In this document: in pieces, positions 5,819 to 60,048 of the stretch
Layout of the letters: every line of letters starts with the position of its first letter
Numbering within the stretch: position 1 is the stretch's first letter
Source of the DNA: Candidatus Moraniibacteriota bacterium
Lineage (GTDB): Bacteria > Patescibacteriota > Minisyncoccia > Moranbacterales > UBA1568
Direction: 5' to 3'
Assembly: GCA_030648835.1 (NCBI GenBank)
Contig: JAUSGT010000002.1
Span: 437,458 to 501,457, forward strand
DNA: 64,000 nt
The notes under the pieces: generated by a model
Seen by the model: only the letters and a program-made list of their open reading frames with translations
Databases searched by the model: none
Told to the model about the DNA's origin: nothing
Program-made: the position numbers and the translations under genes

Positions 5819-6877
5819 ATGTCCGATACCATACAAAAACTTTTAAAAAAGGTGCATGTGAGTACACTCGTTTATGGGGGGCTCATTGTTCTTGTTTTCC
5901 TTCTTGCGACCAGCCTTATAGCGGTATATACCGTTTCCAAGTCGAATGTTTTTGTTGATCGTTTGAAAAGCGCCTTACCGTATCCGATAGCGATTGTCAG
6001 CTATCAGGATGGTATTACCTATCGGACCCTCTCCAAAAATATGGCCTCTGTCAAGCGTTTCTATGAAGCGCAGGATTTTGGGCAAATCGGTTTGCGCGTG
6101 GACTTTTCTACGGCAGAGGGGCAGAAGCGTTTCAAAGTACGTGAGAAAGAAGTGTTGAACAAGATGATCGAGGATGCCGCCATCAAGCGTTTGGCGAATG
6201 AGCGGGGCATAGAGGTGAGCCAAGACGAAGCGGTACAGGGTGTTTTACGGAAGCTGGAGGAGTACGGCAGTGGCGAAGAAGTAAAGAAAGATCTCCTGCG
6301 TTTGTATGGTTGGACACTTGCGGATTTTGAAGAAAAAGTCGTGATGCCGAGTCTCTATCAGGAGAAATTGCAAGAGAGTTTTGTCAAAGAAGTAGATGTC
6401 GCATCCAATGCAAAAGGCAAAATACGTTTGGCCCAGGATGCTCTTCGCACCAGTAAGCCGTTTGCCGATGTTGCCAAGCAGTATTCGGAGGGGCAGACGG
6501 GGGCAGAGGGAGGATCTTTGGGCTGGTTTGCGCTTGAAGATTTAACTCCGGAACTCCGCCCAAGTGTGATACTTCAGAAAGTCGGAGTGCCGGGAGACGT
6601 AGTCGAGAGTAATTTGGGATTTCACATTCTCTTGGTGGAAGAAATCAAGAAAGAAGACAGTCGGCAGTTGTACCGCTTGAGGCAGATTTTCACGCGTAAG
6701 ACGACTTTTGCCGATTTTCTTTCGGAAAAGATGCATGGATTATCGATACTCATTCTGTCTCCGGAATACCAGTGGGATGCAAGAGAAGCGCGCGTGGAAT
6801 TCAGAAGACAGGAATTGCGCGATTTTGAAAAAAATCTTTTTGAGAAGGCAGACGGAGATGCAGCCTTCTTCTTTTAA
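5819..6877 (+). CDS. Membrane-anchored parvulin-type peptidyl-prolyl cis-trans isomerase (PrsA/SurA-like)
   Basis: N-terminal TM helix and the PpiC signature GGSLGWFALEDL...VVESNLGFHILLVEE. Confidence 0.75.
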   Translation: MSDTIQKLLKKVHVSTLVYGGLIVLVFLLATSLIAVYTVSKSNVFVDRLKSALPYPIAIVSYQDGITYRTLSKNMASVKRFYEAQDFGQIGLRVDFSTAEGQKRFKVREKEVLNKMIEDAAIKRLANERGIEVSQDEAVQGVLRKLEEYGSGEEVKKDLLRLYGWTLADFEEKVVMPSLYQEKLQESFVKEVDVASNAKGKIRLAQDALRTSKPFADVAKQYSEGQTGAEGGSLGWFALEDLTPELRPSVILQKVGVPGDVVESNLGFHILLVEEIKKEDSRQLYRLRQIFTRKTTFADFLSEKMHGLSILILSPEYQWDAREARVEFRRQELRDFEKNLFEKADGDAAFFF

Positions 6878-9061: not shown

Positions 9062-10303
9062 ATGCGTCAGACACAACTTTTCACACGGACCAAAAAAGAA
9101 GCACCCAGGGATGAAGTAAGCAGGAATGCAGAGCTACTCATCCGTGCCGGTTTCGTACACAAGGAAATGGCCGGGGTGTATTCTTTCCTTCCGCTCGGTC
9201 TCAGGGTGTTGAACAAAGTGATCGGAATCATTCGCGAAGAAATGAATGTTATCGATGGGCAAGAAATATCAATGACAGCTTTGCAGGAAAAAGAATTGTG
9301 GCAAAAAACCGACCGTTGGGATGACAAAAATGTGGATGTTTGGTTCAAGACGGCTTTGAAAAACGGCACGGAATTGGGGTTGGGCTGGACGCATGAGGAA
9401 CCGCTGACACGGCTTTTGACACAGCATATTTCTTCTTATCGCGATTTACCGGTACTCGTCTATCAGTTTCAGACGAAGTTCCGCAATGAAACGCGCGCCA
9501 AATCAGGCATTATGCGTATGCGGGAGTTCCTTATGAAGGACTTGTATTCTTTTGCCCGGACACAGGGAGAACATGAAAAAATATATGCTTCGGTACGCGC
9601 AGCTTATAAGAAAATTTTCGAACGCGTCGGTTTGGGTGAACGGACATATCCTACGTTCGCATCGGGAGGAGCTTTCAGTAAATACTCCGAGGAATTTCAG
9701 ACAATCAGTGACGCGGGTGAAGATTTGATTTACATTGATGAAGCCAGCGGGCAAGCTTTGAACAAAGAAGTATTGAATGATGCGGTATTGGCCGATCTCG
9801 GATTGAAACGTGAAAATTTGGTGGAGAAAAAAGCGGTTGAAGTGGGGAACATCTTTACTCTGGGGACAAAGTTTTCAGAGCCACTCGGGCTCATATTCAA
9901 GGACGAAGAAGGAGGCGCCCAGTCGGTTGTCATGGGCTGTTATGGCATCGGGCCGGGGCGAGTGATGGGGACGATCGCGGAAGCGCTCTCTGATGAGGCC
10001 GGCTTGGTGTGGCCGGAATCCGTAGCGCCTTTCAGGGTACATCTGCTTTCCTTGGGTGCCGACGAAAAAGCCTTGGAAATCTATAGCGCGCTCACAGCCG
10101 CCGGTATCGAAACGCTTTATGATGATCGTGATGTATCGGCCGGGGAGAAATTCGCCGAGAGCGATCTCATCGGTATTCCGTATCGTGTCGTTATCGGGAA
10201 GCGGTCGCTCGAGTCGGGGAAAGCAGAAATAAAAAAACGCACTTCTTCCGATATCGAAACAGTCTCACTGGAGGAGATTGTTCGGTATTTTGAAAAACTT
10301 TGA
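9062..10303 (+). CDS. proS: Prolyl-tRNA synthetase, short form lacking the editing insertion
   Basis: Class II aaRS motifs. The N-terminus MRQTQLFTRTKKEAPRDEVSRNAELLIRAGF... is typical of ProRS, and a C-terminal anticodon-binding domain is present. Confidence 0.85.
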   Translation: MRQTQLFTRTKKEAPRDEVSRNAELLIRAGFVHKEMAGVYSFLPLGLRVLNKVIGIIREEMNVIDGQEISMTALQEKELWQKTDRWDDKNVDVWFKTALKNGTELGLGWTHEEPLTRLLTQHISSYRDLPVLVYQFQTKFRNETRAKSGIMRMREFLMKDLYSFARTQGEHEKIYASVRAAYKKIFERVGLGERTYPTFASGGAFSKYSEEFQTISDAGEDLIYIDEASGQALNKEVLNDAVLADLGLKRENLVEKKAVEVGNIFTLGTKFSEPLGLIFKDEEGGAQSVVMGCYGIGPGRVMGTIAEALSDEAGLVWPESVAPFRVHLLSLGADEKALEIYSALTAAGIETLYDDRDVSAGEKFAESDLIGIPYRVVIGKRSLESGKAEIKKRTSSDIETVSLEEIVRYFEKL

Positions 10304-12071: not shown

Positions 12072-14633
12072 ATGATTTTCATCAAAAATTTCAATGAAAT
12101 AGGAAAAGGGGATGCCGCTCTTGCGGGTGGCAAGGGTGCTTCTTTGGGAGAAATGACACAGACCGGTATCCCGGTGCCGCCGGGTTTCGTTGTTTTGGCC
12201 GATGCGTTTGAAAAGTTTCTCGATGAGACAGATCTCAATACTGAGATTGATACTATTCTTCATACAGTCAATACGGACGAGATGCGGAGTGTCGAACACG
12301 CCTCCGAAAGGATCCAGAAATTGATTCTTGAGGCCAAGATGCCGGCAGATATCGGGAAAGAGATACAGAAAAATTTTAAAGTTCTGGATGTACAGTATGT
12401 CGCAGTCCGCTCGAGCGCCACAGCCGAGGATAGCGATTCTGCGGCCTGGGCCGGCCAGCTAGATACCTTTTTGAATACTACAGAGGAAACCTTGCTCGAG
12501 AATGTACAGAAATGCTGGGCTTCCTTGTTCACGTCGCGAGCTGTTTTCTATCGCTTCGAGAAAGAATTGCATCAGCAGAAAATTTCCGTGGCGGTCGTAG
12601 TCCAAAAAATGATCCAGTCGGAAATTTCCGGCATCGCCTTTTCCGTCCATCCGGTGACCGAAGACAGAAACCAGCTCATCATCGAAGCCGGTTGGGGTCT
12701 CGGCGAAGCCATCGTTTCCGGACAAATCACGCCGGATAGCTATGTAGTGGAAAAAGATCCACGGCGGATTATCGATACGAATATTGCTATTCAGGAACGT
12801 GGAATTTACCGTTCTTCTTCTGTCATCCCGGGCTTGACCCGGGATCCAGAAAGTAAGAGTGAGACTTCTGCGAATGAATGGCGGGAAATTCCGGAAAATA
12901 AGAGGGAGAAACAGAAGCTTTCAGAAATGCAGATTCTGGAACTCGCGGAACTGGTGATAAAAATCGAAAAGCACTACGGCTTTCCCTGTGACATCGAATG
13001 GGCTCTTATGAGGGAAAAATTCTACATCACCCAGAGCCGGCCGATCACGACACTTTCTCCACAGTCGCCGGTTTCTGAAGACTCAAAAAAAAAATTAAAA
13101 TTTGAAAAAAATATCACCGATAAATTGGAAAAGAGAATCGCTCACTACTTATCCGAGCCGATGATAAAGATGGGGCAATGGTCACTGATGCCAGTTGATA
13201 TGGAGACATGGTATGTACAGGATGTGTCTAAATACTTTGAAGAATTCTTCGGTTTCCCTAAAGGCCATCCGAATTTTTATATTTCAAAAACAGATGTCAT
13301 ATCAAATTATGCTCCGGAATCATTCTTCCCGAAACTTTTTAGTTATATTCGCAATCTTACAGAACAAGACTTTAAAGGACTAGAAAAAAAGTTGAGTATT
13401 TTTTTAAAAATAAAAAAAGATACCAAAAAAGAACTTTCGTACCTTACTAGTGATAGTTTTCCAAATCTTTCCACTACTGAACTCATTGATCTTTACAAAA
13501 AGAATCGCGATCTTATTCATCGGATAGTGATATTCGATCATTTCGGCATGTATGCTGAGAATTATTGGCCGCCCCTCATGCACGAAATTCTTACCAAGAA
13601 GTTCGGACTTATTCCGGATACGCCAGAATATCACGAAGTTTTATTTACTTTGAGCAAACCAAAGGAAATTTCTATATCGCTAGAAGAGAAACGTGATGTC
13701 CTAGGGGAAGCCCTCCGAGTCAAGACGGGAGAAGAGAGTATGAAAGAAGCTGCAAAAAAGCTCGCCGAGGATTTTGGCTGGCTACCCGTTTTCACCTATG
13801 GTACGCCGTGGGATGAACGTCATTACGAGGTGGAGTTGGAGGAACTTTCCAAGCGGGATGTAGCTTTTTTGAAAGAAGAATATGAAAAACTCAAAAATTA
13901 TTCTGATTTGCGTGATCAAGATATACAAAAGTTAGTAAAAAAACATACTATTTTACCTTTAGATCTCCAAATTTTTGTTGATTTTGGTCTGGCAGTAGAT
14001 GTTCGGAACGAGGCGGAATTCGTCGTTTCTTTGGGCGGATATTATTTATTACCGATGTACAAGGAAATGGCACGGAGATTAAAAACTTCTGAAAAAGGGC
14101 TGCGTCTGCTTTTCGAAGAGGAAATCATTGCTTGTCTCGAGGGTCGAGCTGATTCGCAAGACCTTCTGAAAGGAAAAAAGAATATCGTCGCTTGGGGTTT
14201 CGATGAGAGCATGAGAAAGCGGATAAACTTTACCGAAGAAGAGGCGTGGGCATTGCATCATCATTTTGAAGCGCATGCCAAGATTTCCGGCCAAAGCGAA
14301 TCCGATGTCAAAAAGGGCGTCTGTGCCAGTTCCGGCAAAGCCCGAGGTGTAGCGCGTATTCTCAAAAGTCCGGCAGAAAACGCGTCAGTGAAATCGGGAG
14401 ATATCCTAATCAGCTATGCTACAACTGTCGACTATCTCTCGGCTATGAAGAATGCCGCTGCCATCGTTACCGAAACAGGCGGGTTGACGTGTCACGCAGC
14501 CGTTGTTTCGCGCGAGTTCGGTATCCCGTGTATCGTCGGGCTGAAAAACGCCATGTCCGATTTCCGAGACGGTGATCTCGTCGAGGTAGATGCGGATAAT
14601 GGAGTGGTGAAAATCCTTACTAAGAGAGTGTAG
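12072..14633 (+). CDS. P1: PEP-synthase/rifampin-phosphotransferase-like three-domain protein (N-terminal PPDK_N ATP-grasp, middle domain, C-terminal PEP-utilising phosphohistidine swivel domain)
   Basis: N-terminal GGKGASLGEMTQTGIPVPPGFVV...CDIEWAL (ATP-grasp/PPDK_N). C-terminal GGLTCHAAVVSREFGIPCIVG with the His codon at 14493-14495. At 853 aa it matches the RPH-like architecture. Confidence 0.8.
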   Translation: MIFIKNFNEIGKGDAALAGGKGASLGEMTQTGIPVPPGFVVLADAFEKFLDETDLNTEIDTILHTVNTDEMRSVEHASERIQKLILEAKMPADIGKEIQKNFKVLDVQYVAVRSSATAEDSDSAAWAGQLDTFLNTTEETLLENVQKCWASLFTSRAVFYRFEKELHQQKISVAVVVQKMIQSEISGIAFSVHPVTEDRNQLIIEAGWGLGEAIVSGQITPDSYVVEKDPRRIIDTNIAIQERGIYRSSSVIPGLTRDPESKSETSANEWREIPENKREKQKLSEMQILELAELVIKIEKHYGFPCDIEWALMREKFYITQSRPITTLSPQSPVSEDSKKKLKFEKNITDKLEKRIAHYLSEPMIKMGQWSLMPVDMETWYVQDVSKYFEEFFGFPKGHPNFYISKTDVISNYAPESFFPKLFSYIRNLTEQDFKGLEKKLSIFLKIKKDTKKELSYLTSDSFPNLSTTELIDLYKKNRDLIHRIVIFDHFGMYAENYWPPLMHEILTKKFGLIPDTPEYHEVLFTLSKPKEISISLEEKRDVLGEALRVKTGEESMKEAAKKLAEDFGWLPVFTYGTPWDERHYEVELEELSKRDVAFLKEEYEKLKNYSDLRDQDIQKLVKKHTILPLDLQIFVDFGLAVDVRNEAEFVVSLGGYYLLPMYKEMARRLKTSEKGLRLLFEEEIIACLEGRADSQDLLKGKKNIVAWGFDESMRKRINFTEEEAWALHHHFEAHAKISGQSESDVKKGVCASSGKARGVARILKSPAENASVKSGDILISYATTVDYLSAMKNAAAIVTETGGLTCHAAVVSREFGIPCIVGLKNAMSDFRDGDLVEVDADNGVVKILTKRV

Positions 14634-14637
14634 TTTT

Positions 14638-15675
14638 ATGTCCAAGTTAGAATGGAGAAAAAATTGGTCTGGGAGTTGGTCATTTCTTGAGTGTTTTTAT
14701 TACGGTAAGATTTACACTATCTTACTTGAAAAGACTCACGGTATTGGAATTTCAACTGCGGCATTTATATCAAAGCAAGGCAGAAGCGACTCGTATCTCA
14801 TTGAGGATGAAGTTGCACAGTTTGGGGAGGCTCTCGCAAAAAAACTTGAAGGAGATATAAATTTAGCGGAGCAATGGGGTCAATCTGCGAAAGAAATCGG
14901 AGATAGGATTTTGCAATTTATTGAATTTCATCAGGAGAAAGAAATAACCCCACAACTCTATAATGATTTATGGGATATTGTTGAGCAGTATGCCGTAGTA
15001 GCTCTTTCTATAAAAGTCGTTGGTGATTATCTGCCAACTCATCTTTCAAAAAAACTGCTCCCTTTATTTTCGGAGATTCGCGAGTACGGAGAACCGGTAT
15101 ATACTCAGTCGGCTCTCTTTATAAAAAAATTTGCCAACCAGGTCTCAGAAATAACTTCGATCCCAGCTCAGTATGTTCTCGCATCAACAGATTCTGAAAT
15201 TAATGAATATTTTGAAACTCAGAAACTTCCTGATGTGAAAGTTCTCGCCGCTCGTTATGAGTGTGCCTTTATTTATGTACAGGAAGGGGAAATCAAAGAA
15301 ATTACAGGAAAAGAAGGCGTGGATGCATTTGAGAAACAACTGAGAGTTGAGAGCGAGTACGTCCAGGGAGCCTGTGCTTTTCCAGGAAAAGTAAAAGGAA
15401 AAGTGAGGATAATTCTTGATCCTTCAGGGGTATCAAGTTTAGAAGCAGGAACGGTACTGGTAACTGGTATGACCAGGCCAGAGTACCTCCATCTTATGAA
15501 ACAAGCTATTGCCGTAGTTACCGATGGCGGTGGTGTTCTCTCACATGCTGCTATTACTGCCCGAGAATTGAAAAAACCTTGCATTATCGGTACCAAAATC
15601 GCCACGCAAGTCTTGAAAGATGGCGATATGGTAGAGGTGGATGCGGAACGGGGGATTATTACTATTATCAAATGA
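14638..15675 (+). CDS. P2: paralog with a divergent N-terminal domain and the C-terminal phosphohistidine swivel domain; no ATP-grasp domain
   Basis: C-terminal GGGVLSHAAITARELKKPCIIGTKIATQVLKDGDMVEVDAERG with the His codon at 15544-15546. Starts 5 nt after the P1 stop. Confidence 0.7.
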   Translation: MSKLEWRKNWSGSWSFLECFYYGKIYTILLEKTHGIGISTAAFISKQGRSDSYLIEDEVAQFGEALAKKLEGDINLAEQWGQSAKEIGDRILQFIEFHQEKEITPQLYNDLWDIVEQYAVVALSIKVVGDYLPTHLSKKLLPLFSEIREYGEPVYTQSALFIKKFANQVSEITSIPAQYVLASTDSEINEYFETQKLPDVKVLAARYECAFIYVQEGEIKEITGKEGVDAFEKQLRVESEYVQGACAFPGKVKGKVRIILDPSGVSSLEAGTVLVTGMTRPEYLHLMKQAIAVVTDGGGVLSHAAITARELKKPCIIGTKIATQVLKDGDMVEVDAERGIITIIK

Positions 15676-15728: not shown

Positions 15729-17111
15729 GTGAAACATATGGTTGAGAAAAAATTCGAATTTATCGCAGACAGGAATTCCGGTATCGAGGGCAGCATATAT
15801 GGTCTTTCGATGTGTTTGGAGGTTATCTGGCAGAGTAATTTGCGTAACAGCGTGAAGTTTCCGTTTTATGCTCAGATAATCGATGATAAGAAACAGCAGT
15901 GTACGGAGTGGATTGATGCGGAAGCGTATAGGGTCAATGCTTTCAACTTTCTTCGCTATTCTGAGAAGAACGGGACAGACTATCTGAAAAGCGTCAGTAA
16001 GCAAGTAACCGAAGAAACTGCTGATTTTTTTACTTTATCGGCCACACTCCTGCCAACGCTCAGGAAACTTTCTGATTTCGATCTGGCCGAAGCCTACGGC
16101 ATATTTATGAACCGTTACAATGAGATATACGGATTGGGTGCTCTGACGTACGTTTACGAGCATGATCTGTCGGAACACTTATCCCAATCTTTTGGTAAGC
16201 GCGGTAAAAACGCCACAGCCTTTTTGAGTCAGATATTGAAAACGGATTACAAGAGCTTCGTCTTTGAGAGTGATGAGCTTTTACTTGCTATAAAGAGTGA
16301 AAAAAAGGCTATAGTAAAGCAAAAATTGATTAATAGCTATTTGAAGAGTTTTTATTTTATGAGAGCGACGTATTCCTCTGCTCCCATACTTGACTCCGAA
16401 GGAGTGTTACGAATGGCTGCCGAGAGAGAGGTGCAGGAAAAATTTGAAAAAGAGAAGAACCAAAAGCCGATCGAGCTTACAGTAGAAGAAAAAGTACTTG
16501 TCTCGATACTTCAGGAAACGGAAATAATCCGCGATCAGAGAAAAAAAGCCAATCTCATCGGAATGTATATGATGTTTCGCTTTCTCGACGAGCTGTGCAA
16601 GCGGTCAGGTATTTCTTCTGAAATAGCGAGGCGGATGTTTTGGTACGAATTCATAGATGGACTGTTTGATACAGAGCGACTGCTTGCTATTCTGAAAAAG
16701 CGTACGCAAGTCAGTATCGTTTTCGATGGATCAAATACGTATTATTTAGAATATGCCGCGATACGACCCCGTCAAATCAGGAAAAATGTCACGCAATTCA
16801 AAGGAACGCCGGCTTCCTCGGGAAAAGTATCGGCCAAAGTGCGAATTGTTCTTGGTTCGAATGATTTCGAGAAATTCAAGAGGGGCGAAGTCCTCGTGAC
16901 TCAGATGACTCGGCCGGCATTTTTGCCGCTTATGAAAATAGCTGCAGCTATCGTGACGGATGAAGGCGGGCTGACATGCCACGCAGCGATTATCGCGCGG
17001 GAGTTGCATATCCCGTGTATCGTCGGTACCAAAATCGCTACGCAAGTATTGAAAGATGGTGATCTCGTTGAAGTGGACGCGGAAAAGGGATTTGTGAGGA
17101 TTCTGCAGTAA
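15729..17111 (+). CDS. P3: paralog with a divergent N-terminal domain and the C-terminal phosphohistidine swivel domain
   Basis: C-terminal GGLTCHAAIIARELHIPCIVGTKIATQVLKDGDLVEVDAEKG. The track start at 15729 is GTG; the ATG at 15738 is more likely. Confidence 0.7.
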   Translation: MKHMVEKKFEFIADRNSGIEGSIYGLSMCLEVIWQSNLRNSVKFPFYAQIIDDKKQQCTEWIDAEAYRVNAFNFLRYSEKNGTDYLKSVSKQVTEETADFFTLSATLLPTLRKLSDFDLAEAYGIFMNRYNEIYGLGALTYVYEHDLSEHLSQSFGKRGKNATAFLSQILKTDYKSFVFESDELLLAIKSEKKAIVKQKLINSYLKSFYFMRATYSSAPILDSEGVLRMAAEREVQEKFEKEKNQKPIELTVEEKVLVSILQETEIIRDQRKKANLIGMYMMFRFLDELCKRSGISSEIARRMFWYEFIDGLFDTERLLAILKKRTQVSIVFDGSNTYYLEYAAIRPRQIRKNVTQFKGTPASSGKVSAKVRIVLGSNDFEKFKRGEVLVTQMTRPAFLPLMKIAAAIVTDEGGLTCHAAIIARELHIPCIVGTKIATQVLKDGDLVEVDAEKGFVRILQ

Positions 17112-18455: not shown

Positions 18456-20012
18456 ATGAATCTGAGACAAGTTTTGGACAGAAAGGGGATGTACATATAT
18501 CCCTGGTACATATCGGATATTGCGGTTACCAAAGATATCGCTTCCATCGCCCCGACCAATGTAAAGAAGGTTTTTGTCAGTATCAAAGACAACCTTTTGA
18601 CCATGTATTATGATACTGATGCTGTCGACAAGATTGCCATATACTTTTTGGATAAAATTCTTGTAAACGATATATTTTTTGATGAGGTTATCAAAAATAT
18701 TTATCACTGTGCCGATGATTTGCTTTCTTTTTGCAGAGAAAGCGCGGAGAAAAAAGTTGAAAAAATGTCAGATGAGGAGTTGCTGAGTATTTACCGGACG
18801 TATACGGAAAAATTACGCACTCTAAGGATATGGGGCTGGGTGCCTCCGATTCTGGACGGTATGACCGACCCGTTCTTGAGCCAGCATCTGCTTACGCGAT
18901 TCGGTGAATTTATGGTGACAAAAGGACTCTCTGATAAGGTGAGCGAGTATTATTCGACACTCAGTTCCAGCGAGAGAGAAAGCGAGGTACAAGGAGAAGA
19001 GATAGCTCGTTTGACACTGGCACAAAGTATTGTGGATAGCAGCCAGAGCGAAGAAATCATCCAGTGTATCAAGAATACCGATGAGGGTGCTTTACAGGAG
19101 AAATTTACATCGTTCTATGCACTTCTGGAAAAGCATACGCAAGCATTCGGCGCTCTCACCTATTCTTATAGTGGACCGGCGATGACCATCGCGTATCTGC
19201 TCAAGGCATTGGCCGATGATTTCGAACGAGGAGATATAAGGGGACAGAGAAAGAAAATTCAAGATCACTTCCGGAATATCAAAGAGGAAAAGAGAAAGAT
19301 TATCGAGGCGGTCGATTTGTCGGCAGATTTACAAAGGGAATTCCGAGTGTCGGCAGAACTGATGTATATCAAGGATTGGCGCAAGGGAGCCTATCAGAAA
19401 TCGTATCTCCTGATGGATGTTATTTTGCAAGAGTTAGCCAAGCGTTTGGATATATCTCTGAAAGAGATCAAGTTTCTTGTGTTTGACGAAGTGCGGGAAG
19501 CACTGACCGGAGGAAAGGGAACATACTATAAGGCTCTGCTTGAAGAGCGTCTGAAACACTGCTGCTATAGCGTGGAAAATGGTATTATTGTTGTTTCACA
19601 GGGTAAAGCTTGTGAAGTGTTGGAGGAAAAAATAAAGAAAGAAAGTGTGAGTATGGAACCGACGAAGATGCCAATAGGGGATATCCGCGAGATAAAAGGA
19701 TCTGTCGCGTACAGCGGGTATGCCAAGGGTATTGTGAAGATTGTGCTGACCGTAGAGGATACTGACAAGGTCAATGAAGGTGATATTCTCGTTTCTTCGG
19801 CGACCAATCCCGATCTGATGCTGGCGATGAGGAAGGCCGCCGCCTTCGTGACCGATACGGGAGGCATTATGTCGCATGCTTCTATCGTCTCGCGAGAAAT
19901 GAAAAAACCCTGCGTCGTTGGGACGAAAATAGCCACACATATATTCAAGGATGGTGATCTTGTGGAGGTAGATGCCAAGAACGGTGTAGTAAGGATTCTC
20001 AAAAAGAAATGA
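18456..20012 (+). CDS. P4: paralog with a divergent N-terminal domain and the C-terminal phosphohistidine swivel domain
   Basis: C-terminal GGIMSHASIVSREMKKPCVVGTKIATHIFKDGDLVEVDAKNG. Confidence 0.7.
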   Translation: MNLRQVLDRKGMYIYPWYISDIAVTKDIASIAPTNVKKVFVSIKDNLLTMYYDTDAVDKIAIYFLDKILVNDIFFDEVIKNIYHCADDLLSFCRESAEKKVEKMSDEELLSIYRTYTEKLRTLRIWGWVPPILDGMTDPFLSQHLLTRFGEFMVTKGLSDKVSEYYSTLSSSERESEVQGEEIARLTLAQSIVDSSQSEEIIQCIKNTDEGALQEKFTSFYALLEKHTQAFGALTYSYSGPAMTIAYLLKALADDFERGDIRGQRKKIQDHFRNIKEEKRKIIEAVDLSADLQREFRVSAELMYIKDWRKGAYQKSYLLMDVILQELAKRLDISLKEIKFLVFDEVREALTGGKGTYYKALLEERLKHCCYSVENGIIVVSQGKACEVLEEKIKKESVSMEPTKMPIGDIREIKGSVAYSGYAKGIVKIVLTVEDTDKVNEGDILVSSATNPDLMLAMRKAAAFVTDTGGIMSHASIVSREMKKPCVVGTKIATHIFKDGDLVEVDAKNGVVRILKKK

Positions 20013-21367
20013 ATATAAGTGATTTTCAAAATCGTAAATGGGTGGTGCTGGGAGCCAATTGTTACCCGCTGTATGCCGATTCTTTCGCGGAGCCGGTGAG
20101 CCAGGGGTACTACCGGACATATGGGATCCCCAATGAGGTGCTGGGGGTTTTCAACAAGGATTTTTTCGAATGGTTGTATGACAACTCACAACTCGTTGCA
20201 TTGTCAGAGAAATTATTGCCAGGTTTGTTGAGCACACCTTGGAATTACTATGATGAATGGCAAAAGAATGCGAAATCCTTTTCTGTTTTTCATGAATCAG
20301 TTATAGAAAAAGATTTTACAGCATTGTCCCATAAAGAGTTGGGTAAATTGGCAAAAGAATACCATCGTATTTTTTGGCTTCAGTTTGCTCCCAGTAATAT
20401 TATTGAGCCGCTTAGCTATTATTTTCAAAGCCGTTTCAAAAAAATGCTTACCCTCAAAGGTACGAAGGAAAATGAAATAGATCAGCTAATGGATTACTAT
20501 GGCCGATCCAAGTATCCAAACTATATTAAAGAATGTCTGGCTGAATACCGTTTGGCAAAAAATGAAGACGTCATACAAGCAGTTTTGAAGAAATATGCAT
20601 ACCTGGCGAACGATTACTTGGGGCCAAAAGTATTAACCAAAGCGTACCTGGATGAACTGTTAAAACAAGAAACGCATGAGCCGCATGTTGGCGCAGTCCC
20701 TGCTGTTTCTCCCGAAACGCAGTTGTTGCTAGAAGTTTTTCAGATGGTGGCTACTATCCAGGATGTCAGGAAAGCTTATAGCTTGATGATGATAGCTGGC
20801 GTACACAATTTTGCGATCGAATACGCCAAGCGGCTTAAACTGCCGGATACTCTTATATGGTATGCTCTCTGGAAAGAAATATATGCAGGCGATGTCAATG
20901 AAAAAAAGCTGGAAGAGCGTCGCGAACATAGCGTCATACTCTGGGGGAAAAAAGAAACGGTTGCTTGTGAAGGAATAGAGGCTGAGAAATTGGCAGCAGA
21001 TATCCATACGTTGGTTTTCGGCAGTACCAAAGATGTGAAAAAAGTGAAAGGCATATGTGCTTCTCCGGGAAAAGTCACGGGGCGAGCCGTCGTTGTGATG
21101 CATCCTGATGAATTCCACAAGGTGAAAAAAGGAGACGTGCTTTTTACTATGATGACGCGCCCGGAATATTTACCGGTTATGCAGCTGGCAGCCGCATTTG
21201 TCACTGATGAGGGAGGCATCACGTCGCACGCGGCGATTGTGGCGAGGGAAATGAAAAAACCATGTATCATAGCTACGAAAATAGGCACGAAAGTCGTGAA
21301 AGACGGTGATCTCGTCGAGGTAGACGCGGATAAGGGGATAGTGAGGATATTAGAAAAAAAGAAATAG
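20009..21367 (+). CDS. P5: paralog with a divergent N-terminal domain and the C-terminal phosphohistidine swivel domain
   Basis: C-terminal GGITSHAAIVAREMKKPCIIATKIGTKVVKDGDLVEVDADKG. Its start overlaps the P4 stop (ATGA). Confidence 0.7.
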   Translation: MNISDFQNRKWVVLGANCYPLYADSFAEPVSQGYYRTYGIPNEVLGVFNKDFFEWLYDNSQLVALSEKLLPGLLSTPWNYYDEWQKNAKSFSVFHESVIEKDFTALSHKELGKLAKEYHRIFWLQFAPSNIIEPLSYYFQSRFKKMLTLKGTKENEIDQLMDYYGRSKYPNYIKECLAEYRLAKNEDVIQAVLKKYAYLANDYLGPKVLTKAYLDELLKQETHEPHVGAVPAVSPETQLLLEVFQMVATIQDVRKAYSLMMIAGVHNFAIEYAKRLKLPDTLIWYALWKEIYAGDVNEKKLEERREHSVILWGKKETVACEGIEAEKLAADIHTLVFGSTKDVKKVKGICASPGKVTGRAVVVMHPDEFHKVKKGDVLFTMMTRPEYLPVMQLAAAFVTDEGGITSHAAIVAREMKKPCIIATKIGTKVVKDGDLVEVDADKGIVRILEKKK

Positions 21368-24007: not shown

Positions 24008-25588
24008 ATGCATGAAAAAATAAATTGGTTTTGGATGCATCGGAGAAATGCCAGTCTGCATCACTTCAGTTTTTTGATGACCGGTATGGCCAAGAGAGGA
24101 TGGTCGCCGGTGGTCGATTTTTGGTTTGATAACCAGGCAGTTGTCGGAGTACCAGGCAAAGGCTGTTATGTTTTTTATGATAAAGACCAGCTGAAAAGCG
24201 GGGTGAAGTATAAGAATATCCAAGACAGTATTGATAGTAATCCTGCCTTTGTAAAGGATTTTCAACGAAGAACGGATGAAATTTTTGGTGCGTTGTTTTT
24301 CAAATGCCTTGATATTGAAACAGACAATCTTTCTCTCCTGAGCGACAAGGAACTCCATAGGCTCTACCTCGGCTTCATAGATGCTATGACTGTTGGTCCG
24401 CTCATAACCGTACAACTTTTCGGTATTGAAGCTTGTTTTGATGAGAATTACCGGATCATACAATTTCTCAGGAAACGTTTGCAGGAGCTTGGCAAAGGAA
24501 AAGAATTTGAAACATATAAAGGTATTCTCTCGGTGAATATCGGAGAGACGGTGGCATTTACGGAAAAGAAAAATTTTTACCAGGTTGCGGCGGAAATGGC
24601 AAAAAATAAAGATATTTACGCGCTTTTTCAGAATGAGTCGTTGCAAGAAATAAGCGAGAAATTGAAAAAGTATCCTCGAGAGAACGCTCTTTTCGAGCGA
24701 CATACCAAGAAGTACGAGTGGGTGAATACCGAATACGTGAGCGGTGGCTGGTCTCGTGAGAAGTGGATTGGTGAATTCAAAACGGCGTTGACAGATGTTC
24801 TATTGCCGGATGAACAATTGAAGATTATTTTGCAGAGTTTTGAAGATCTCAATGCGGAAAGAAAAAAGACCATTGAAGAACTGGCTCCGCCCAAGGATGT
24901 TTTGCATGCTCTCAACTGTCTTTCTGAACTGATAGCGCAAAGAGATTGGACAAAAGGGTATTTTACGAAGGCTCTATTGAGCTACAATGTGCTTCTTGAT
25001 GAGATTGCCAGGAGGATCGGTAAAACACGAGAGGATATTCTGCTCTATTCTTATCATGAAATCGAAGCGTACTTTTTGGACGGAACGATTATTCCACAGG
25101 AAGAAATAGATGATCGGAAGAGCAACGGGTTTGTCATTCTCATCAAGCATGGGAGTTTCGAACTGGTTACCGGAAAAAAGAAAATACAGGAAGTTATTGA
25201 GAGTGAAAAAATTTCAGAACCGTTTGAAAAGGTGGCACATATTACCGAATTTAAGGGGCTGGGAGTTTCGCGGGGATGTATCCGGGGGAAGGTGCGGGTT
25301 TTGGAAGATGCCTCGAAGATTTCAGAGCTTGTAGAAGGAGAGATACTGGTCACCTACATGACGACAATCGAATTCATTCCTGCTTTTCGAAAAGCGGCGG
25401 CGGTAGTAACCGATGAAGGTGGAATGTCGTGTCATGCGGCGATCGTAAGTCGAGAATTCAAATTACCTTGTGTCGTCGGCACAAAAGTAGCGACACGCGT
25501 ATTGGAGACGGGCGATGAAGTCGAGGTAGACGCGGATAATGGAAAAGTAAAAATATTGACTAAACACTCATTTATTCAACAAACTTGA
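24008..25588 (+). CDS. P6: paralog with a divergent N-terminal domain and the C-terminal phosphohistidine swivel domain
   Basis: C-terminal GGMSCHAAIVSREFKLPCVVGTKVATRVLETGDEVEVDADNG. Confidence 0.7.
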   Translation: MHEKINWFWMHRRNASLHHFSFLMTGMAKRGWSPVVDFWFDNQAVVGVPGKGCYVFYDKDQLKSGVKYKNIQDSIDSNPAFVKDFQRRTDEIFGALFFKCLDIETDNLSLLSDKELHRLYLGFIDAMTVGPLITVQLFGIEACFDENYRIIQFLRKRLQELGKGKEFETYKGILSVNIGETVAFTEKKNFYQVAAEMAKNKDIYALFQNESLQEISEKLKKYPRENALFERHTKKYEWVNTEYVSGGWSREKWIGEFKTALTDVLLPDEQLKIILQSFEDLNAERKKTIEELAPPKDVLHALNCLSELIAQRDWTKGYFTKALLSYNVLLDEIARRIGKTREDILLYSYHEIEAYFLDGTIIPQEEIDDRKSNGFVILIKHGSFELVTGKKKIQEVIESEKISEPFEKVAHITEFKGLGVSRGCIRGKVRVLEDASKISELVEGEILVTYMTTIEFIPAFRKAAAVVTDEGGMSCHAAIVSREFKLPCVVGTKVATRVLETGDEVEVDADNGKVKILTKHSFIQQT

Positions 25589-26091: not shown

Positions 26092-27288
26092 ATGCGGATA
26101 GCCGTACAAGCCAGTGATTTGGATAACGCGCGGATCGATGGAACGCGCGTGTATTTGAAAGAGTTGCTGAATCGTTTCGGAAAATTTTCGCCGGAGGCGG
26201 AATTTTTGCTGTATCATCAAAACGAATTCAATCCTGAGCTTGCGCCGTGGACGTTCGCCAATTATCGGATCAAAAAGTGTCCATTTCCTTGGGCGTGGAT
26301 GCAAACACGTTTCGCCTGGGAACTGTACAGACAGAGGCCGGAAAAACTTTTTTTGCCAATCCAGGCGGCTCCGCTTTTCGTTCCGAAGACGATAGAAGTG
26401 ACCGCAACCATTCATGATCTCGCCTTCAAGCGTTATCCGGAAACGTTTCCGAAAAAGCATTTACTGAAACTCAACTTTCTGCTCGATGTCGTTGTCCGGA
26501 GAGCAAACAAACTTATTGCCGTGTCGCAATCAACCAAAGATGATCTTTTGGAATTTTTTCCCAATCTTCCGGAGAATCGCGTGAAAGTCATTTACCATGG
26601 TTTCGACAGCGAGTTTTTCTCTACAAGACTTTCCTCTGATGAACTTTCTGAAAAGCTAAAAAGCTACAAGCTACAAGCTACGAGCTATATACTGTATGTC
26701 GGTGCTCTGCAGCCAAGGAAAAATCTGGTGCGTTTGATCGAGGCTTTCAATATTGTCAAACAAAAGTTAGAGGGTCATTCCGAACGAAGTGAGGAATCTC
26801 GAGTCCAGTATCATCAAACGGGATCCTTCGCTGATGCTCAGGATGACGGGCGAATGAAGCTGGTATTGGCAGGGGAACCGGCTTGGCTGGCAGAGGATAT
26901 CCTCGCTGCGCGGCAAAAAAGCGTTTACAAAGAAGATATTATCATGACAGGACGAGTGACATTCGATGAATTGCGTGTATTGTATCAAGGCGCGCGGTGT
27001 TTTGTCTTTCCTTCGCTCTATGAGGGTTTTGGCCTCCCAATTCTTGAAGCTATGGCTTCCCATATTCCGGTTTTGACAGCGGATAATTCCAGTTTGCGCG
27101 AAGTCGGTGGCGACGCGGCGCTCTACTGTGATGCCGAGAGCGTGGAGGATATAGCCGAAAAAATGAAACGTCTCTCAAGCGATGAGGGGTTGCGTTCGGA
27201 ACTTATCGTGAGAGGGGGAGAACAATTGAAAAAATTTTCCTGGGACAAATGCGCCCGAGAAACGCTGGAGTATATCCAGTTCAAATAG
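26092..27288 (+). CDS. Glycosyltransferase family 4 (GT-B, group 1)
   Basis: EGFGLPILEAMASHIPVLTADNSSLREVGGDAALYCD. It carries an in-frame ~26-aa insertion that coincides with repeat R1. Confidence 0.8.
   Translation: MRIAVQASDLDNARIDGTRVYLKELLNRFGKFSPEAEFLLYHQNEFNPELAPWTFANYRIKKCPFPWAWMQTRFAWELYRQRPEKLFLPIQAAPLFVPKTIEVTATIHDLAFKRYPETFPKKHLLKLNFLLDVVVRRANKLIAVSQSTKDDLLEFFPNLPENRVKVIYHGFDSEFFSTRLSSDELSEKLKSYKLQATSYILYVGALQPRKNLVRLIEAFNIVKQKLEGHSERSEESRVQYHQTGSFADAQDDGRMKLVLAGEPAWLAEDILAARQKSVYKEDIIMTGRVTFDELRVLYQGARCFVFPSLYEGFGLPILEAMASHIPVLTADNSSLREVGGDAALYCDAESVEDIAEKMKRLSSDEGLRSELIVRGGEQLKKFSWDKCARETLEYIQFK
26774..26847 (+). repeat. R1: copy of a ~70-nt imperfect hairpin repeat (GTCATTCCGAAC.GAGTGAGGAATCTCG...CGAGATCCTTCGCT...CTCAGGATGAC), in-frame within the GT4 gene
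   Basis: Near-identical arms to R2 at 57475-57541. The arms are self-complementary with G·U-compatible mismatches. Confidence 0.7.
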
Positions 27289-27295
27289 TTTGTCT

Positions 27296-27440
27296 CCCTT
27301 GTAAGCAACCTTCCCGGGGCGGGACACTTGCAGAGATGAGAATTTTGTGTCACAATACTTCTGCCGTTTAGCGGCTTTCGTGACTTTTTAGTCACGCCCT
27401 GAGTGAAGCTGGCTTCAGCTGGCGGAATCGAAGGGTCTTT
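27296..27440 (+). promoter_or_regulatory. Conserved leader-like module, A element (CTTGTAAGCAACCTTCCCGGGG) plus downstream GCCGTT...hairpins...TTTTTTTTGAT, upstream of the ABC-F gene
   Basis: The A element recurs at 49334-49360 upstream of the other ABC-F gene. The GCCGTT and T-run/GAT flanks also recur. Confidence 0.5.
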
Positions 27441-39589: not shown

Positions 39590-39667
39590 AAAAGCAGGGT
39601 CTTTATTTGGCACTCTCACATGGAGATTGCTAATTTTTTTGTTTTACGCTAGGATAAGAAGTGTTTG

Positions 39668-39843
39668 TTTTTACCGGCGTAGCCAACAACCTTTCAGAGA
39701 GACGCTCGTTCACCCAGCGGTTCTCTCACTTCTGAAATTTTTTCGATCCATCCCGCCAAGGCGGGACGGCACCCTGCCTACCGGCAGGCAGGCATGCTCG
39801 AAAAAAGTTCAAGCCTCTCTGGAAAGATTTTGGCTACGAAGGT
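39668..39843 (+). promoter_or_regulatory. Conserved leader-like module (diverged A plus B: CGTTC...GAAATTTTTTCGATCC, hairpin, GCACC, hairpin, ATGCTCGAAAAAAGTTCAAGCCTCTCTGGAAAGATTTTGGCTACGAAGGT) upstream of dnaJ
   Basis: It shares ordered blocks with 49334-49477. The hairpin between GATCC and CACC differs in sequence but keeps its pairing (CCCGCC/GGCGGG versus CCGTCTCT/AGAGACGG). Confidence 0.5.
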
Positions 39844-39875
39844 AAAGATGATATGCAATTACGAACAATGCAAAT

Positions 39876-41599: not shown

Positions 41600-41640
41600 T
41601 GTTGTTTGCAAAACAGGCTTTGTAATTTTGATTTTCCATT

Positions 41641-49281: not shown

Positions 49282-49333
49282 CGGTCTTATCCAACAGGCT
49301 AAACAAAAGAATTTTTTCTCAATAAAATACCCT

Positions 49334-49477
49334 CCCTTGCAAGCAACCTCCCCGGGGGCCGTTCGTCCGACCAGCGTCGGACTTCTCTTATGAACTTTTT
49401 TTGATCCGTCTCTGAAGAGACGGCACCATGCTCAAAAAAACTTCAACTCTCCCGGGAAGATTCTTGCGGCGGAAGGT
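49334..49477 (+). promoter_or_regulatory. Composite conserved leader-like module (A: CTTGCAAGCAACCTCCCCGGGGG; B: GCCGTTC, hairpin, GAACTTTTTTTGATCC, hairpin CCGTCTCT/AGAGACGG, CACC, ATGCTCAAAAAAACTTCAACTCTCCCGGGAAGATTCTTGCGGCGGAAGGT) upstream of the ABC-F gene
   Basis: Ordered sequence blocks are shared with 27296-27440 and 39668-39843. Confidence 0.55.
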
Positions 49478-49569
49478 TTTCCTTATACTCTACTCATCCA
49501 AGAATCTTTTTGGAGAGTTTACAAAAGGCAGTTTTTGTTGTATTATTCTTTTTTGTTCTGGAAACTAAT

Positions 49570-51477: not shown

Positions 51478-53154
51478 ATGAGACAACACATAAAAAAACG
51501 CTTCCATTTTGCGGGAGTACTCTTGCTTGGCTTGATTTGCGCAATCATTGCCTATCCACAAGCGGTCAAATCCATTTCACCGCTTTTTCGTGTTGTGGAA
51601 AAAATGAAAATCAACGAAGGATTGGATTTGCAAGGGGGTATTCACTTGGAATACAAGGCGGATATGTCACAGGTTCCAAGTGAAAAGGTGGACGCCGCTC
51701 TTTCCGCCGCGGAAGCCGTGATCGAACGAAGAGTGAATGCTTTTGGTGTGGGTGAACCACTCGTGCAGCTTTCGCGGTCGGGGACGGAGAGGCGTATCAT
51801 TGTCGAATTGCCGGGTATCAAAGACATCGAACAAGCCAAGAAAATGATCAAAGAAACTCCGTTTCTTGAATTTCGTGAACCGGCCGGTCCGGAAGCGGAA
51901 AAGCAATTTGACGTTTTGAATCAAGAGACCAAAAGAGAGGCAGAAGCTATACTTGAGCTGGCGAAGAAGGGTGAAGATTTTGCCGCTCTGGCCAAAGAAT
52001 GGAGCGAAGATCCGGGATCCAAAGACAGGGGTGGCGATCTGGATTTTGCCAAGAAGGGTACATTCGTGCCTGAGTTTGATACGGTTATTTTCGATCCCAA
52101 TTTCAAATCGGGAGAAGTGAGTCCAAATCTTGTGGAGAGCCAATTCGGCTGGCATATCATCAAAAAAATCGAAGAACGCGGTGAAGGTAACAACAGGGAA
52201 GTCCGCTCCGCCCATATTCTTTTTACGAAACGCACGCTTGATCAGTACCCGGATTTGAAATGGGTGGTGACCGGTTTGACTGGCAAAAATTTGAAGAGCG
52301 CTACCGTTGATTATCAAAGTCAGGGAGTGGGCTCACCACAGGTAGCGCTTCAATTCGACAGTGAGGGGACAAAATTGTTTGCGGAAATTACTAAACGCAA
52401 TCTTGGCAAGCCGGTGGCCATACTTCTCGACAAGGAAATTATCAGCCAGCCAACTGTTCAAAACGAAATCGTGGGAGGCCAGGCAGTCATTACCGGCAAT
52501 TTCACAATGCAACAGGCAAATGATCTCGTGAAACGTCTCAACGAGGGTGCTCTCCCGGTCCCGATCACTTTGGTATCGCAACAGAGTGTGGATGCCAGTC
52601 TTGGCCAGAGTGCGCTCCAAAAGAGCTTGTTCGCGGGTCTCGTCGGTCTTGGGGCAGTGGCTGTATTTATGATTCTCTATTATCGTTTGCTCGGTGTCGT
52701 GGCAGTTGTGGCACTTCTTCTGTATACGGCGATGCTCCTCACTATTTTCAAACTCTCTGTCTTTACTCCCTTCGCGATTACGGTGACTTTACCGGGTATC
52801 GCCGGTTTCATCTTGTCGATCGGTATTGCCGTCGATGCCAACGTGCTTATTTTCGAGCGCACGCGCGAGGAACTTTCATACGGTAAAACTGTTATCAAAT
52901 CTTTGGTGGAAGGGTTTCGCCGGGCTTGGCCCAGTATTCGTGATGGGCATGTTTCGACGCTTATCACAACGGTAATCCTTATGGCTTTTGGTACCGGATT
53001 CGTAAAGGGATTCGCGGTTATTCTGGCCTTAGGTGTGCTCCTCTCGCTTTTCACCGCGGTGGTGTTGGTGCGAGTCTCGGTTATGTTTGTCGCCGGTGAT
53101 TGGATGGAGCGCCATCCGAAACTTTTGGTCTCACCAAAGAAATTGTTAGAATAA
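51478..53154 (+). CDS. secD: Protein translocase subunit SecD with an inserted parvulin-like PPIase signature in the first periplasmic domain
   Basis: SecD motifs GLDLQGGIHL and GIAVDANVLIFERTREEL with six C-terminal TM helices. Residues ~150-260 read EDFAALAKEWSEDPGSKDRGGDLDFAKKGTFVPEFDTVIFDP...GEVSPNLVESQFGWHIIKK. Confidence 0.85.
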   Translation: MRQHIKKRFHFAGVLLLGLICAIIAYPQAVKSISPLFRVVEKMKINEGLDLQGGIHLEYKADMSQVPSEKVDAALSAAEAVIERRVNAFGVGEPLVQLSRSGTERRIIVELPGIKDIEQAKKMIKETPFLEFREPAGPEAEKQFDVLNQETKREAEAILELAKKGEDFAALAKEWSEDPGSKDRGGDLDFAKKGTFVPEFDTVIFDPNFKSGEVSPNLVESQFGWHIIKKIEERGEGNNREVRSAHILFTKRTLDQYPDLKWVVTGLTGKNLKSATVDYQSQGVGSPQVALQFDSEGTKLFAEITKRNLGKPVAILLDKEIISQPTVQNEIVGGQAVITGNFTMQQANDLVKRLNEGALPVPITLVSQQSVDASLGQSALQKSLFAGLVGLGAVAVFMILYYRLLGVVAVVALLLYTAMLLTIFKLSVFTPFAITVTLPGIAGFILSIGIAVDANVLIFERTREELSYGKTVIKSLVEGFRRAWPSIRDGHVSTLITTVILMAFGTGFVKGFAVILALGVLLSLFTAVVLVRVSVMFVAGDWMERHPKLLVSPKKLLE

Positions 53155-57474: not shown

Positions 57475-57541
57475 GTCATTCCGAACAGAGTGAGGAATCT
57501 CGTAAAATTTTGACGAGATCCTTCGCTCCACTCAGGATGAC
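57475..57541 (+). repeat. R2: copy of the ~70-nt imperfect hairpin repeat in the pheS-pheT intergenic region
   Basis: GTCATTCCGAACAGAGTGAGGAATCTCG, loop, CGAGATCCTTCGCTCCACTCAGGATGAC. The arms pair over ~28 positions, including G·U-compatible mismatches. Confidence 0.7.
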
Positions 57542-59981: not shown

Positions 59982-60048
59982 GTCATTCTGAGTGAAATGA
60001 AGAATCCCGATATATTTCAACGAGACTCTTCGCTGCGCTCGGAGCGAC
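59982..60048 (+). repeat. R3: degenerate copy of the hairpin repeat between pheT and rnpB
   Basis: GTCATTCTGAGTGAAATGAAGAATCCCG...CGAGACTCTTCGCTGCGCTCGGAGCGAC. The blocks are in the same order as R1 and R2 but the arm complementarity is weaker. Confidence 0.5.

Follow-up and report, generated by a model that had tools for sequence, protein, structure and literature searches.

The spacer upstream of an ABC-F gene (start 49608) in a 64,000-nucleotide stretch of a Candidatus Moraniibacteriota genome, hereafter the window, contains ordered sequence blocks that recur upstream of dnaJ. The initial annotation read these blocks as a leader-like module common to three 5' regions, those of dnaJ and of two ABC-F genes. 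This raised the question of whether the module is a regulatory leader, some other folded RNA or a repeat that spreads as DNA. The search for copies combined DNA pattern scans of GTDB species genomes, JGI metagenomes and viral contigs with two covariance models (R1 and R2) that were run on the fetched DNA. We refer to the sequence at 49326-49480 as copy A, to that at 39669-39845 as copy B and to a remnant site at 27294-27440 as copy C; L001, L002 and so on designate loci or contigs of relatives.

Copies of the module in the window

Copies A and B, both on the + strand, share the ordered blocks where these had first been placed. A blastn comparison of A with B within the window aligned about 165 columns with 62% identity (E = 3e-6), and a gapped core pattern (TTTTTNGATCC..GGCACC..ATGCTNNAAAAA) had exactly two sites in the window, A and B, against 0.00 expected from shuffles. 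A search of the window with a covariance model built from relatives likewise returned A and B only, also with the filters off. The features of the copies are as follows.

49326..49480, + strand: copy A, full element (model R1 158.6 bits, E = 5e-34; MFE -61.1 kcal/mol, z = -5.0), with the stop of a NUDIX gene (49281) upstream and the ABC-F promoter downstream
49329-49358 (5' strand) and 49449-49477 (3' strand), + strand: closing helix of copy A
49365-49382, + strand: side hairpin P2 of copy A, loop CAGC
49391-49404 (5' strand) and 49432-49445 (3' strand), + strand: helix P3 of copy A
49406-49423, + strand: apical hairpin P4 of copy A
49424-49431, + strand: conserved unpaired CACCATGC of copy A
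49300..49328, + strand: promoter-like TAAACA-17-TAAAAT just 5' of copy A (9/12 matches; candidate only)
39669..39845, + strand: copy B, full element (model R1 120.5 bits, E = 2e-25; MFE -80.7 kcal/mol, z = -5.6), with the dnaJ promoter and a CIRCE-like site upstream and the dnaJ start (39876) downstream
27294..27319, + strand: copy C remnant, 5' arm of the closing helix only, CTCCCTTGTAAGCAACCTTCCCGGGG (blastn 92% over 26 nt to 49332-49357, E = 9e-5)
27421..27437, + strand: possible 3' end remnant of copy C, GGCGGAATCGAAGGGTC (GGCGGAA..GAAGGGT), a weak resemblance seen by sequence inspection to GGCGGAAGGT, the end of copy A
41606..41618, no strand assigned: possible footprint of a lost copy, TTGCAAAACAGGC, in the spacer between a response-regulator gene and recJ

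Copy B differs from copy A by an additional hairpin, CTGCCTACCGGCAGGCAGG, inserted after GGCACC, and its predicted outer stem reaches 39661-39856; its orthologous counterpart lies at 9803-9972 of L023. The presence of the module in three 5' regions was upheld for A and B, which are full copies, and not for the third site, where homology is limited to the 26-nt 5' arm and perhaps a short 3' end. The arm of copy C matches the pattern with 3 mismatches and its outer sequence agrees with that of copy A. The site as a whole (27294-27440) gave no match to either covariance model, including R1 with the filters off, and was rejected as a third full copy; its interior is unrelated to A and B and its fold is unremarkable (z = -1.5). 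It is also the only site at which the first block follows closely upon the upstream stop codon, as had been described for all copies: the distance is 8 nt at this site, 53 nt in A and about 90 nt in B.

Comparison with known RNAs gave little. The whole window had no match in Rfam 15 at the gathering score; at E <= 10 the copy B region had none and the copy A region had three chance-level matches of 12-16 bits, far under the gathering scores. ARAGORN found no tRNA or tmRNA, and our literature search returned nothing relevant on an RNA motif or MITE of Moranbacteria or the candidate phyla.

The window contains other repeated sequences. Six + strand genes between 12072 and 25588 (12072-14633, 14638-15675, 15729-17111, 18456-20012, 20009-21367 and 24008-25588) each finish with a PEP-utilising mobile domain (PF00391), a PPDK_N domain being present as well in the first (12072-14633) alone, and their 3' ends form the DNA repeat families D1/D2. 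A 28-nt repeat, GTCATTCCGAACGAAGTGAGGAATCTCG, is present in three copies with 79-100% identity (26774-26801, inside a glycosyltransferase ORF, 57475-57502 and 59982-60009); a fourth copy of this family, D4, at 12267 is only 71% identical.

Fold, covariation and strand signal

RNA folding gave A and B the same architecture, with a long closing helix, a three-way junction, a side hairpin, an inner helix and one or two apical hairpins, and with the z-scores listed above relative to dinucleotide shuffles; across the copies these scores range from -5 to -10. Self-complementary matches pair the 5' block (..CAAGCAACCT..CCCGGGG) with the 3' block (CTCCCGGGAAGATTCTTG..GGAAGGT). The two blocks that had been described as separate modules are therefore better seen as parts of one structure, the first block and the tail of the second (..GGAAGATTCTTGCGGCGGAAGGT) being the two strands of a single closing helix. 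Its arms pair over about 30-35 bp, the inner part being conserved (CAAGCAACCTTCCCGGGAG / CTCTCCCGGGAAGATTCTTG) and the outer part copy-specific, and in the outermost part the sequence differs from copy to copy with complementarity kept.

The side hairpin is present on one arm only and its loop is mostly CCAGCG, with AGC in 21/21 aligned copies. In the inner helix GAAnTTTTTTnGA pairs with TCnAAAAAAnTTC, a pairing replaced by GGAATCT/AGATTCC in one subtype, and the apical hairpin is a variable sequence between conserved GATCC and GGCACCATGC. Conservation extends to about 25 unpaired positions (P2 loop, junctions, apical region); they include the AGC of the side-hairpin loop, the ATG before the inner helix, the TCC and the CAA after it, and ACC..TGC after the apical hairpin. 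The interior is better conserved than the termini, and the architecture is retained in very diverged subtypes. The extra hairpin after GGCACC is found in copy B, L005b, L007, L023 and L025.

Covariation was assessed on a MAFFT alignment of 13 distinct copies and on a model-guided alignment of 21 copies. In the latter, which by its construction favours the model, 93.4% of the cells were standard pairs and 35/41 pairs changed on both sides; the independent MAFFT alignment agreed, with a consensus fold of 41 pairs and compensatory change in 22/41. None of 500 shuffles (0/500) reached the observed value, and sliding the partners by 1-3 columns gave 37-53% pairing. The covariation first seen between two copies thus persists with more sequences. 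This applies in particular to the hairpin after GATCC, whose changed sequence and kept pairing in A and B were confirmed and in which 4/5 modelled pairs change on both sides among the 21 copies. Compensatory change also occurred in place between orthologous copies, for instance in P3 of copy B and L023, which needs either selection or a templated mechanism.

When selection acts on an RNA fold, G.U pairs are normally frequent on the functional strand and A.C mismatches scarce. Within 851 pair cells we counted 22 G.U and 27 A.C, and the G.U:A.C counts showed no shift when split by orientation (13:16 for co-oriented and 8:10 for antisense copies). Folding energy was lower for the complement strand in 21/21 copies. 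About 9 of the 13 kcal/mol of strand difference is base composition (shuffles -47 vs -38 kcal/mol), and the composition-corrected z-scores (-6.6 and -7.4) are similar, both strands being well beyond shuffles. Strand choice by folding energy was consequently dropped, because it reflects mostly base composition and the z-scores differ little. In all, nothing in these tests speaks for an RNA on the strand assumed in the initial annotation, and for the other strand there is only a weak hint. The argument of that annotation from compensatory change to a functional structured element stands as regards the conserved fold and the double-sided changes; no RNA strand signal accompanies them. Compensatory changes across the hairpin are common in REPINs (PMC3116915), so the covariation observed here is compatible with a DNA-level element. 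Strong covariation is not RNA-specific in this case.

Distribution, gene context and the leader question

The pattern scan of GTDB species genomes identified ten loci, up to three per genome and nearly all labelled Moraniibacteriota or Patescibacteria, and of the loci that the scan of JGI metagenomes returned, five were true and five false; the R1 and R2 models then added further, more diverged copies from the fetched DNA. This search for additional copies, which had been proposed as a check on the module, raised the total to 24 full copies, each at a locus of its own, from about 12 sources; the copies are about 150-200 bp long and represent at least three or four subtypes. The carriers are labelled Moranbacteria or Patescibacteria with one exception, labelled Bdellovibrionales, in which the copy and its flanks nearly match a Moraniibacteriota contig (L006 vs L008). 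The family has so far been found only in Candidatus Moranbacteria (Patescibacteria), in agreement with the earlier suggestion of a lineage-specific cassette. Pattern scans of viral contigs, in which a phage origin was looked for, gave no match. Density reaches 4 copies in 13.5 kb (L013), and JBBTWT, JBAQEZ, JAHFOM and PFVP each have at least 3-4 copies within the small stretches fetched; four other Moranbacteria loci (62 kb) have no copy.

Relatedness among copies does not simply follow their position. The orthologous pair of copy B and L023 is 70% identical vs 88% for the non-orthologous pair L002 and L009a, which lie among different genes and yet agree even in the outer stem. The family is a mosaic as regards the apical hairpin, whose sequence changes from one orthologous copy to another and recurs in copies at other sites, and two subtypes are paired tail to tail in two genomes. 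No near-identical copies were seen within one genome, and there is therefore no sign of recent movement. A Pfam scan of 39 flanking proteins revealed no transposase domain, and no recurrent direct repeat that could be a target-site duplication was found at the predicted ends, the ends of the element being ill-defined.

The same genomes contain another dispersed repeat, also palindromic but unrelated in sequence, which is about 170-190 nt long and has an extended AT-rich outer stem (L006 5121-5310; three copies in L008; L024 about 121-340; L022 15999-16173). It precedes the Cpn10/groES gene in L006 and dnaJ in L024, and blastn found none in the window. Contigs that start in or near palindromic repeats (L001 1-39, a Logan contig beginning inside copy A, and L024 1-375) suggest that metagenome assemblers break at such repeats.

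All copies are intergenic and most lie within transcription units, operons included, where many fill spacers of 150-200 nt between co-transcribed genes. Over 23 copies, about 15 are co-oriented with their neighbours and 8 are antisense. They adjoin genes for Cpn10/groES (270 nt 5' of the gene in L006), a class-I W/Y tRNA synthetase, a radical-SAM protein and a P-type ATPase, and are found between nrdD-like and nrdG-like genes and between gatB and miaA. Antisense copies include one in the uvrC/uvrA spacer and two inside the F1 ATP synthase operon atpA-atpG-atpD-atpC.

The recJ spacer varies among the genomes compared. L022 has a complete element there on the + strand, whereas in L024 and L025 the complete element is on the - strand; the position of the outer arms is unchanged in all three. 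L023 has only the 3' third, ending ..GATTCTTGCAAAACAGGC, and the window has the 13-nt footprint. This shows that over evolutionary time spacers gain, lose, truncate or invert their copy. Vertical inheritance, with loss of copies and a single inversion, could also account for presence and absence at two spacers, no transposition being needed. The outer stem of the L024 copy resembles parS half-sites (TGTTTCAC...GTGAAACA); the orthologous L022 and L025 copies have none, and the resemblance was treated as a coincidence. Integron attC sites were rejected on sequence inspection, the R''/R' core motifs being absent from the arms and the copies lying about 10 kb apart among housekeeping genes.

The leader question was examined at the two full copies of the window, around which the following sites were found.

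49518..49546, + strand: ABC-F promoter-like, sigma-70-like TTTACA-17-TATTAT (10/12 matches), 3' of copy A and before the gene start at 49608
39607..39633, + strand: CIRCE-like inverted repeat TTGGCACTC-N9-GATTGCTAA (2 mismatches to the consensus; unique in the window)
39627..39655, + strand: putative dnaJ promoter TTGCTA-17-TAGGAT, conserved in four orthologous spacers and under the threshold of the scan tool

The same ABC-F boxes directly precede the gene in three orthologous loci, L027, L028 and L029, in which the spacer from the NUDIX gene to the ABC-F gene is 84, 196 and 95 nt long, respectively. None of the four orthologous loci L026-L029 (77-84% protein identity) has a copy (4/4). The conserved putative promoter 3' of copy A, together with these element-free loci, argues that copy A is an insertion between the NUDIX stop and the ABC-F promoter. 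Because it precedes that promoter, copy A would be part of the ABC-F transcript by read-through only. Attenuation of the ABC-F gene by the module acting as its leader, as initially proposed, is contradicted by the position of the promoter, by the four loci that have no copy and by the fact that no leader ORF is conserved among the copies; the regulation of the gene is not explained by the element. In L028 (JBAQEZ) the stretch from the conserved promoter to the start of the ABC-F gene includes a hairpin rich in A and T, AAAAGATCTCAAAAGTTTTTAG.../...CTAAAAAACTTTTGAAATCTTTT, at about 9870-9965, with weak model matches only, on both strands. Further along the window, a SecD homologue (51478-53154) has an inserted PPIC-type rotamase domain, and the same insertion is found in the orthologues of L026, L028 and L029.

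The order is reversed at dnaJ, where the putative promoter lies upstream of copy B (at the ABC-F gene it lies downstream of copy A); to the earlier question of whether the module belongs to the 5' UTR, the two loci give opposite answers. The CIRCE-like site is conserved in L022, L023 and L025, is separate from the element and overlaps the putative -35 box; the L025 version of the promoter is TTGCCA-17-TAAAAT. Taking the start site from these boxes, copy B would begin at about +1 to +8 of the dnaJ transcript and, from its position, is probably part of the dnaJ 5' UTR. The element is present in the dnaJ spacer of the window and of L023 (2/4) and absent from those of L022 and L025. L022 has instead, at about 5996-6195, an unrelated insert of about 190 nt in the dnaJ 5' UTR, with no match elsewhere in the fetched DNA, and L025 has neither element nor insert. 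With two of the four orthologous dnaJ spacers lacking the element, copy B is a dispensable passenger in what is probably the dnaJ 5' UTR. Stress control shared with dnaJ, another early proposal, is not supported by these spacers, nor by the unrelated genes that most copies flank. The model match to copy B ends at 39845, 31 nt before the dnaJ ATG at 39876, and covers no ribosome-binding site. An RNA thermometer or heat-shock leader of dnaJ was rejected, since the element stops 31 nt short of the ATG (its outer stem may reach 39856) and is absent in L022 and L025.

Several other readings of the copies were discarded. The sole recurrent ATG, CACCATGCTC, has its frame broken by a stop-bearing insertion in L022 and is missing in diverged copies; with the frame broken, and with the adjoining R/Y variation covarying with the pairing partner in a way that is not codon-like, a coding role for the ATGCTC frame was rejected. 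P2 of copy A and the U-rich tract score as terminator-like, but the U tract is lost in diverged subtypes, and an own terminator was dropped. An own promoter was also dropped, as a promoter-like site is found upstream of copy A only; the flanks of the other copies share no promoter boxes. For the gene upstream of dnaJ (356 aa), considered as hrcA, there was no Pfam match and an HrcA identity is not claimed.

Nature of the element and relation to known systems

The family is real and cleanly defined; it is undescribed, yet of a general kind that is already known. It fits a palindromic DNA repeat better than a strand-specific RNA, and on balance we lean towards regarding the module as a member of a hitherto undescribed family of dispersed palindromes in Moranbacteria, similar in kind to REPIN, ERIC and MITE repeats. 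Such an element would spread, or would once have spread, as DNA, and its hairpin may be kept because propagation or maintenance needs it, through a putative protein acting in trans and recognising the conserved core. Repair or conversion between the two arms, templated by the palindrome, could keep the hairpin as well. Effects on neighbouring genes would then be incidental, arising from the great stability of the hairpin in the transcript. What speaks against the repeat reading is that the interior is conserved and the termini vary, contrary to what is seen in a classical MITE; such a pattern looks more like a functional RNA or a protein-recognition fold.

That same pattern is one reason why a structured RNA selected by the host, acting in cis within mRNAs and spread in repeat-like fashion by duplication and loss, stays alive; the others are that no partner enzyme was seen near the copies, no target duplication at their ends and no sign that any copy moved recently. 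Such an RNA could be processed by RNase III, stabilise the transcript, insulate neighbouring cistrons from each other or dock an RNA-binding protein. The very strong covariation in both alignments, the in-place compensatory change between orthologous copies, the low fold z-scores, the three-way junction and unpaired nucleotides conserved across diverged subtypes, and the intergenic position of all copies, mostly within transcription units and operons, are what such an RNA would display. However, the copies have no fixed orientation and no fixed gene context, they are dispensable at orthologous sites and G.U is not enriched over A.C even when split by orientation. In addition, the antisense transcript shows complementary loops, so a sequence-specific RNA partner could not recognise both orientations. 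We consider this role in cis unlikely, while taking it seriously. A modest chance may also be given to the idea that the family is a new class of folded nucleic acid whose junction and roughly 25 unpaired nucleotides are read by a dedicated protein. Such a class might be a type of non-autonomous mobile element with a putative partner enzyme in reduced Patescibacteria genomes, or a host-selected cis-acting RNA (processing, stability, insulator) copied into many operons.

It is improbable that the copies are trans-acting small RNA genes, for example 6S-like and protein-sequestering, each with its own promoter and ending at the closing helix. The promoter-like site that ends 6 nt 5' of copy A, the strong folding of both strands and the several paralogues per genome would agree with such genes, and the similar size and the long closing helix broken by small bulges recall 6S and other regulatory RNAs. 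The element nevertheless has no two-sided central bubble (the 3' side of the junction, CAAC, is only 3-4 nt), no Rfam 6S match and no match of note at E <= 10. Whichever strand is considered, the other copies share neither a promoter nor a terminator, many copies fill the 150-200 nt spacers of co-transcribed genes, and copies are lost or inverted at orthologous sites, which is not the behaviour of a single conserved gene. We find it hardly credible that the module is a 5' leader, attenuator or thermosensor controlling both ABC-F genes and dnaJ jointly. The probable location of copy B in the dnaJ 5' UTR, 3' of a conserved CIRCE-like site and promoter, and the L006 copy 270 nt before the Cpn10/groES gene are in its favour. 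These are outweighed by the conserved ABC-F promoter downstream of copy A, the absence of the element from four ABC-F loci and two of four dnaJ spacers, the mere 26-nt remnant upstream of the second ABC-F gene, the 31 nt that separate the 3' arm of copy B from the start of dnaJ and leave any ribosome-binding site uncovered, the lack of a conserved leader ORF and the unrelated genes next to most copies. Leaders of resistance ABC-F genes (vmlR, msr, lsa, vga type) lie 3' of the promoter and have a short leader peptide and a terminator/antiterminator switch. The element shares with these attenuators only its position upstream of an ABC-F gene, and no other leader feature holds.

Patescibacteria, with their very small genomes and short spacers, are usually said to contain few repeats and little mobile DNA. 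The present family, undescribed and divided into several subtypes, and the unrelated palindromic family alongside it may break metagenome assemblies in this phylum; the MAG from which the window was taken includes a 636-kb contig. In covariation screens such a family could be mistaken for riboswitch-like leaders, and covariation alone is no proof of RNA function. Filled, empty and inverted sites could serve as a marker of strain-level variation. Should there be a partner protein, the family would indicate that the phylum has a system for mobilisation or RNA handling that has so far escaped notice.

Among known repeats, classical MITEs such as Correia/NEMIS of Neisseria are bounded by terminal inverted repeats that are conserved, and they duplicate a defined target (TA for Correia). 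The Moranbacteria element resembles them in its length of 100-200 bp, its inverted-repeat arms, its intergenic position and co-transcription with neighbours, its long duplex, a potential RNase III substrate, and its presence/absence polymorphism. It differs in that its termini are the least conserved part and that no target duplication was found at its ill-defined ends. Of the traits of MITEs and REPINs, it shows several dispersed non-coding copies per genome and filled as well as empty orthologous sites (dnaJ, recJ and ABC-F spacers), which loss alone could also explain; of those of MITEs it also shows terminal inverted repeats, formed by the arms of the closing helix, the outermost part of which is variable.

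ERIC/IRU sequences of enterobacteria are imperfect palindromes of about 127 bp, exclusively intergenic, mostly transcribed, inserted in either orientation and of low to moderate copy number. They were reportedly described by Sharples and Lloyd in 1990, by Hulton et al. in 1991 and by Wilson and Sharp in 2006. Some have internal insertions at fixed positions, filled and empty orthologous sites occur, their conservation is above that of neutral spacer DNA and we know of no transposase for them. The extra hairpin after GGCACC resembles these fixed-position insertions. In contrast to ERICs, the element is found in Patescibacteria, is unrelated in sequence and has a three-way junction instead of a simple hairpin.

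REPINs are REP doublets that form hairpins and are mobilised by RAYT transposases (Bertels and Rainey 2011, PMC3116915). No RAYT (IS200-like Y1 transposase) gene was seen near any copy of the element and there is no sequence similarity. A REPIN is moreover a symmetric inverted REP pair with conserved ends and a variable spacer, whereas the element is asymmetric, with a conserved interior, variable termini and a side hairpin P2 that has no inverted partner on the other arm. The likeness lies in the general plan: both are short, non-coding, dispersed intergenic repeats able to form a long hairpin in single-stranded DNA or RNA, and both show distinct subfamilies per genome, clusters of adjacent copies, single decayed remnants and compensatory changes in the hairpin (PMC3116915).
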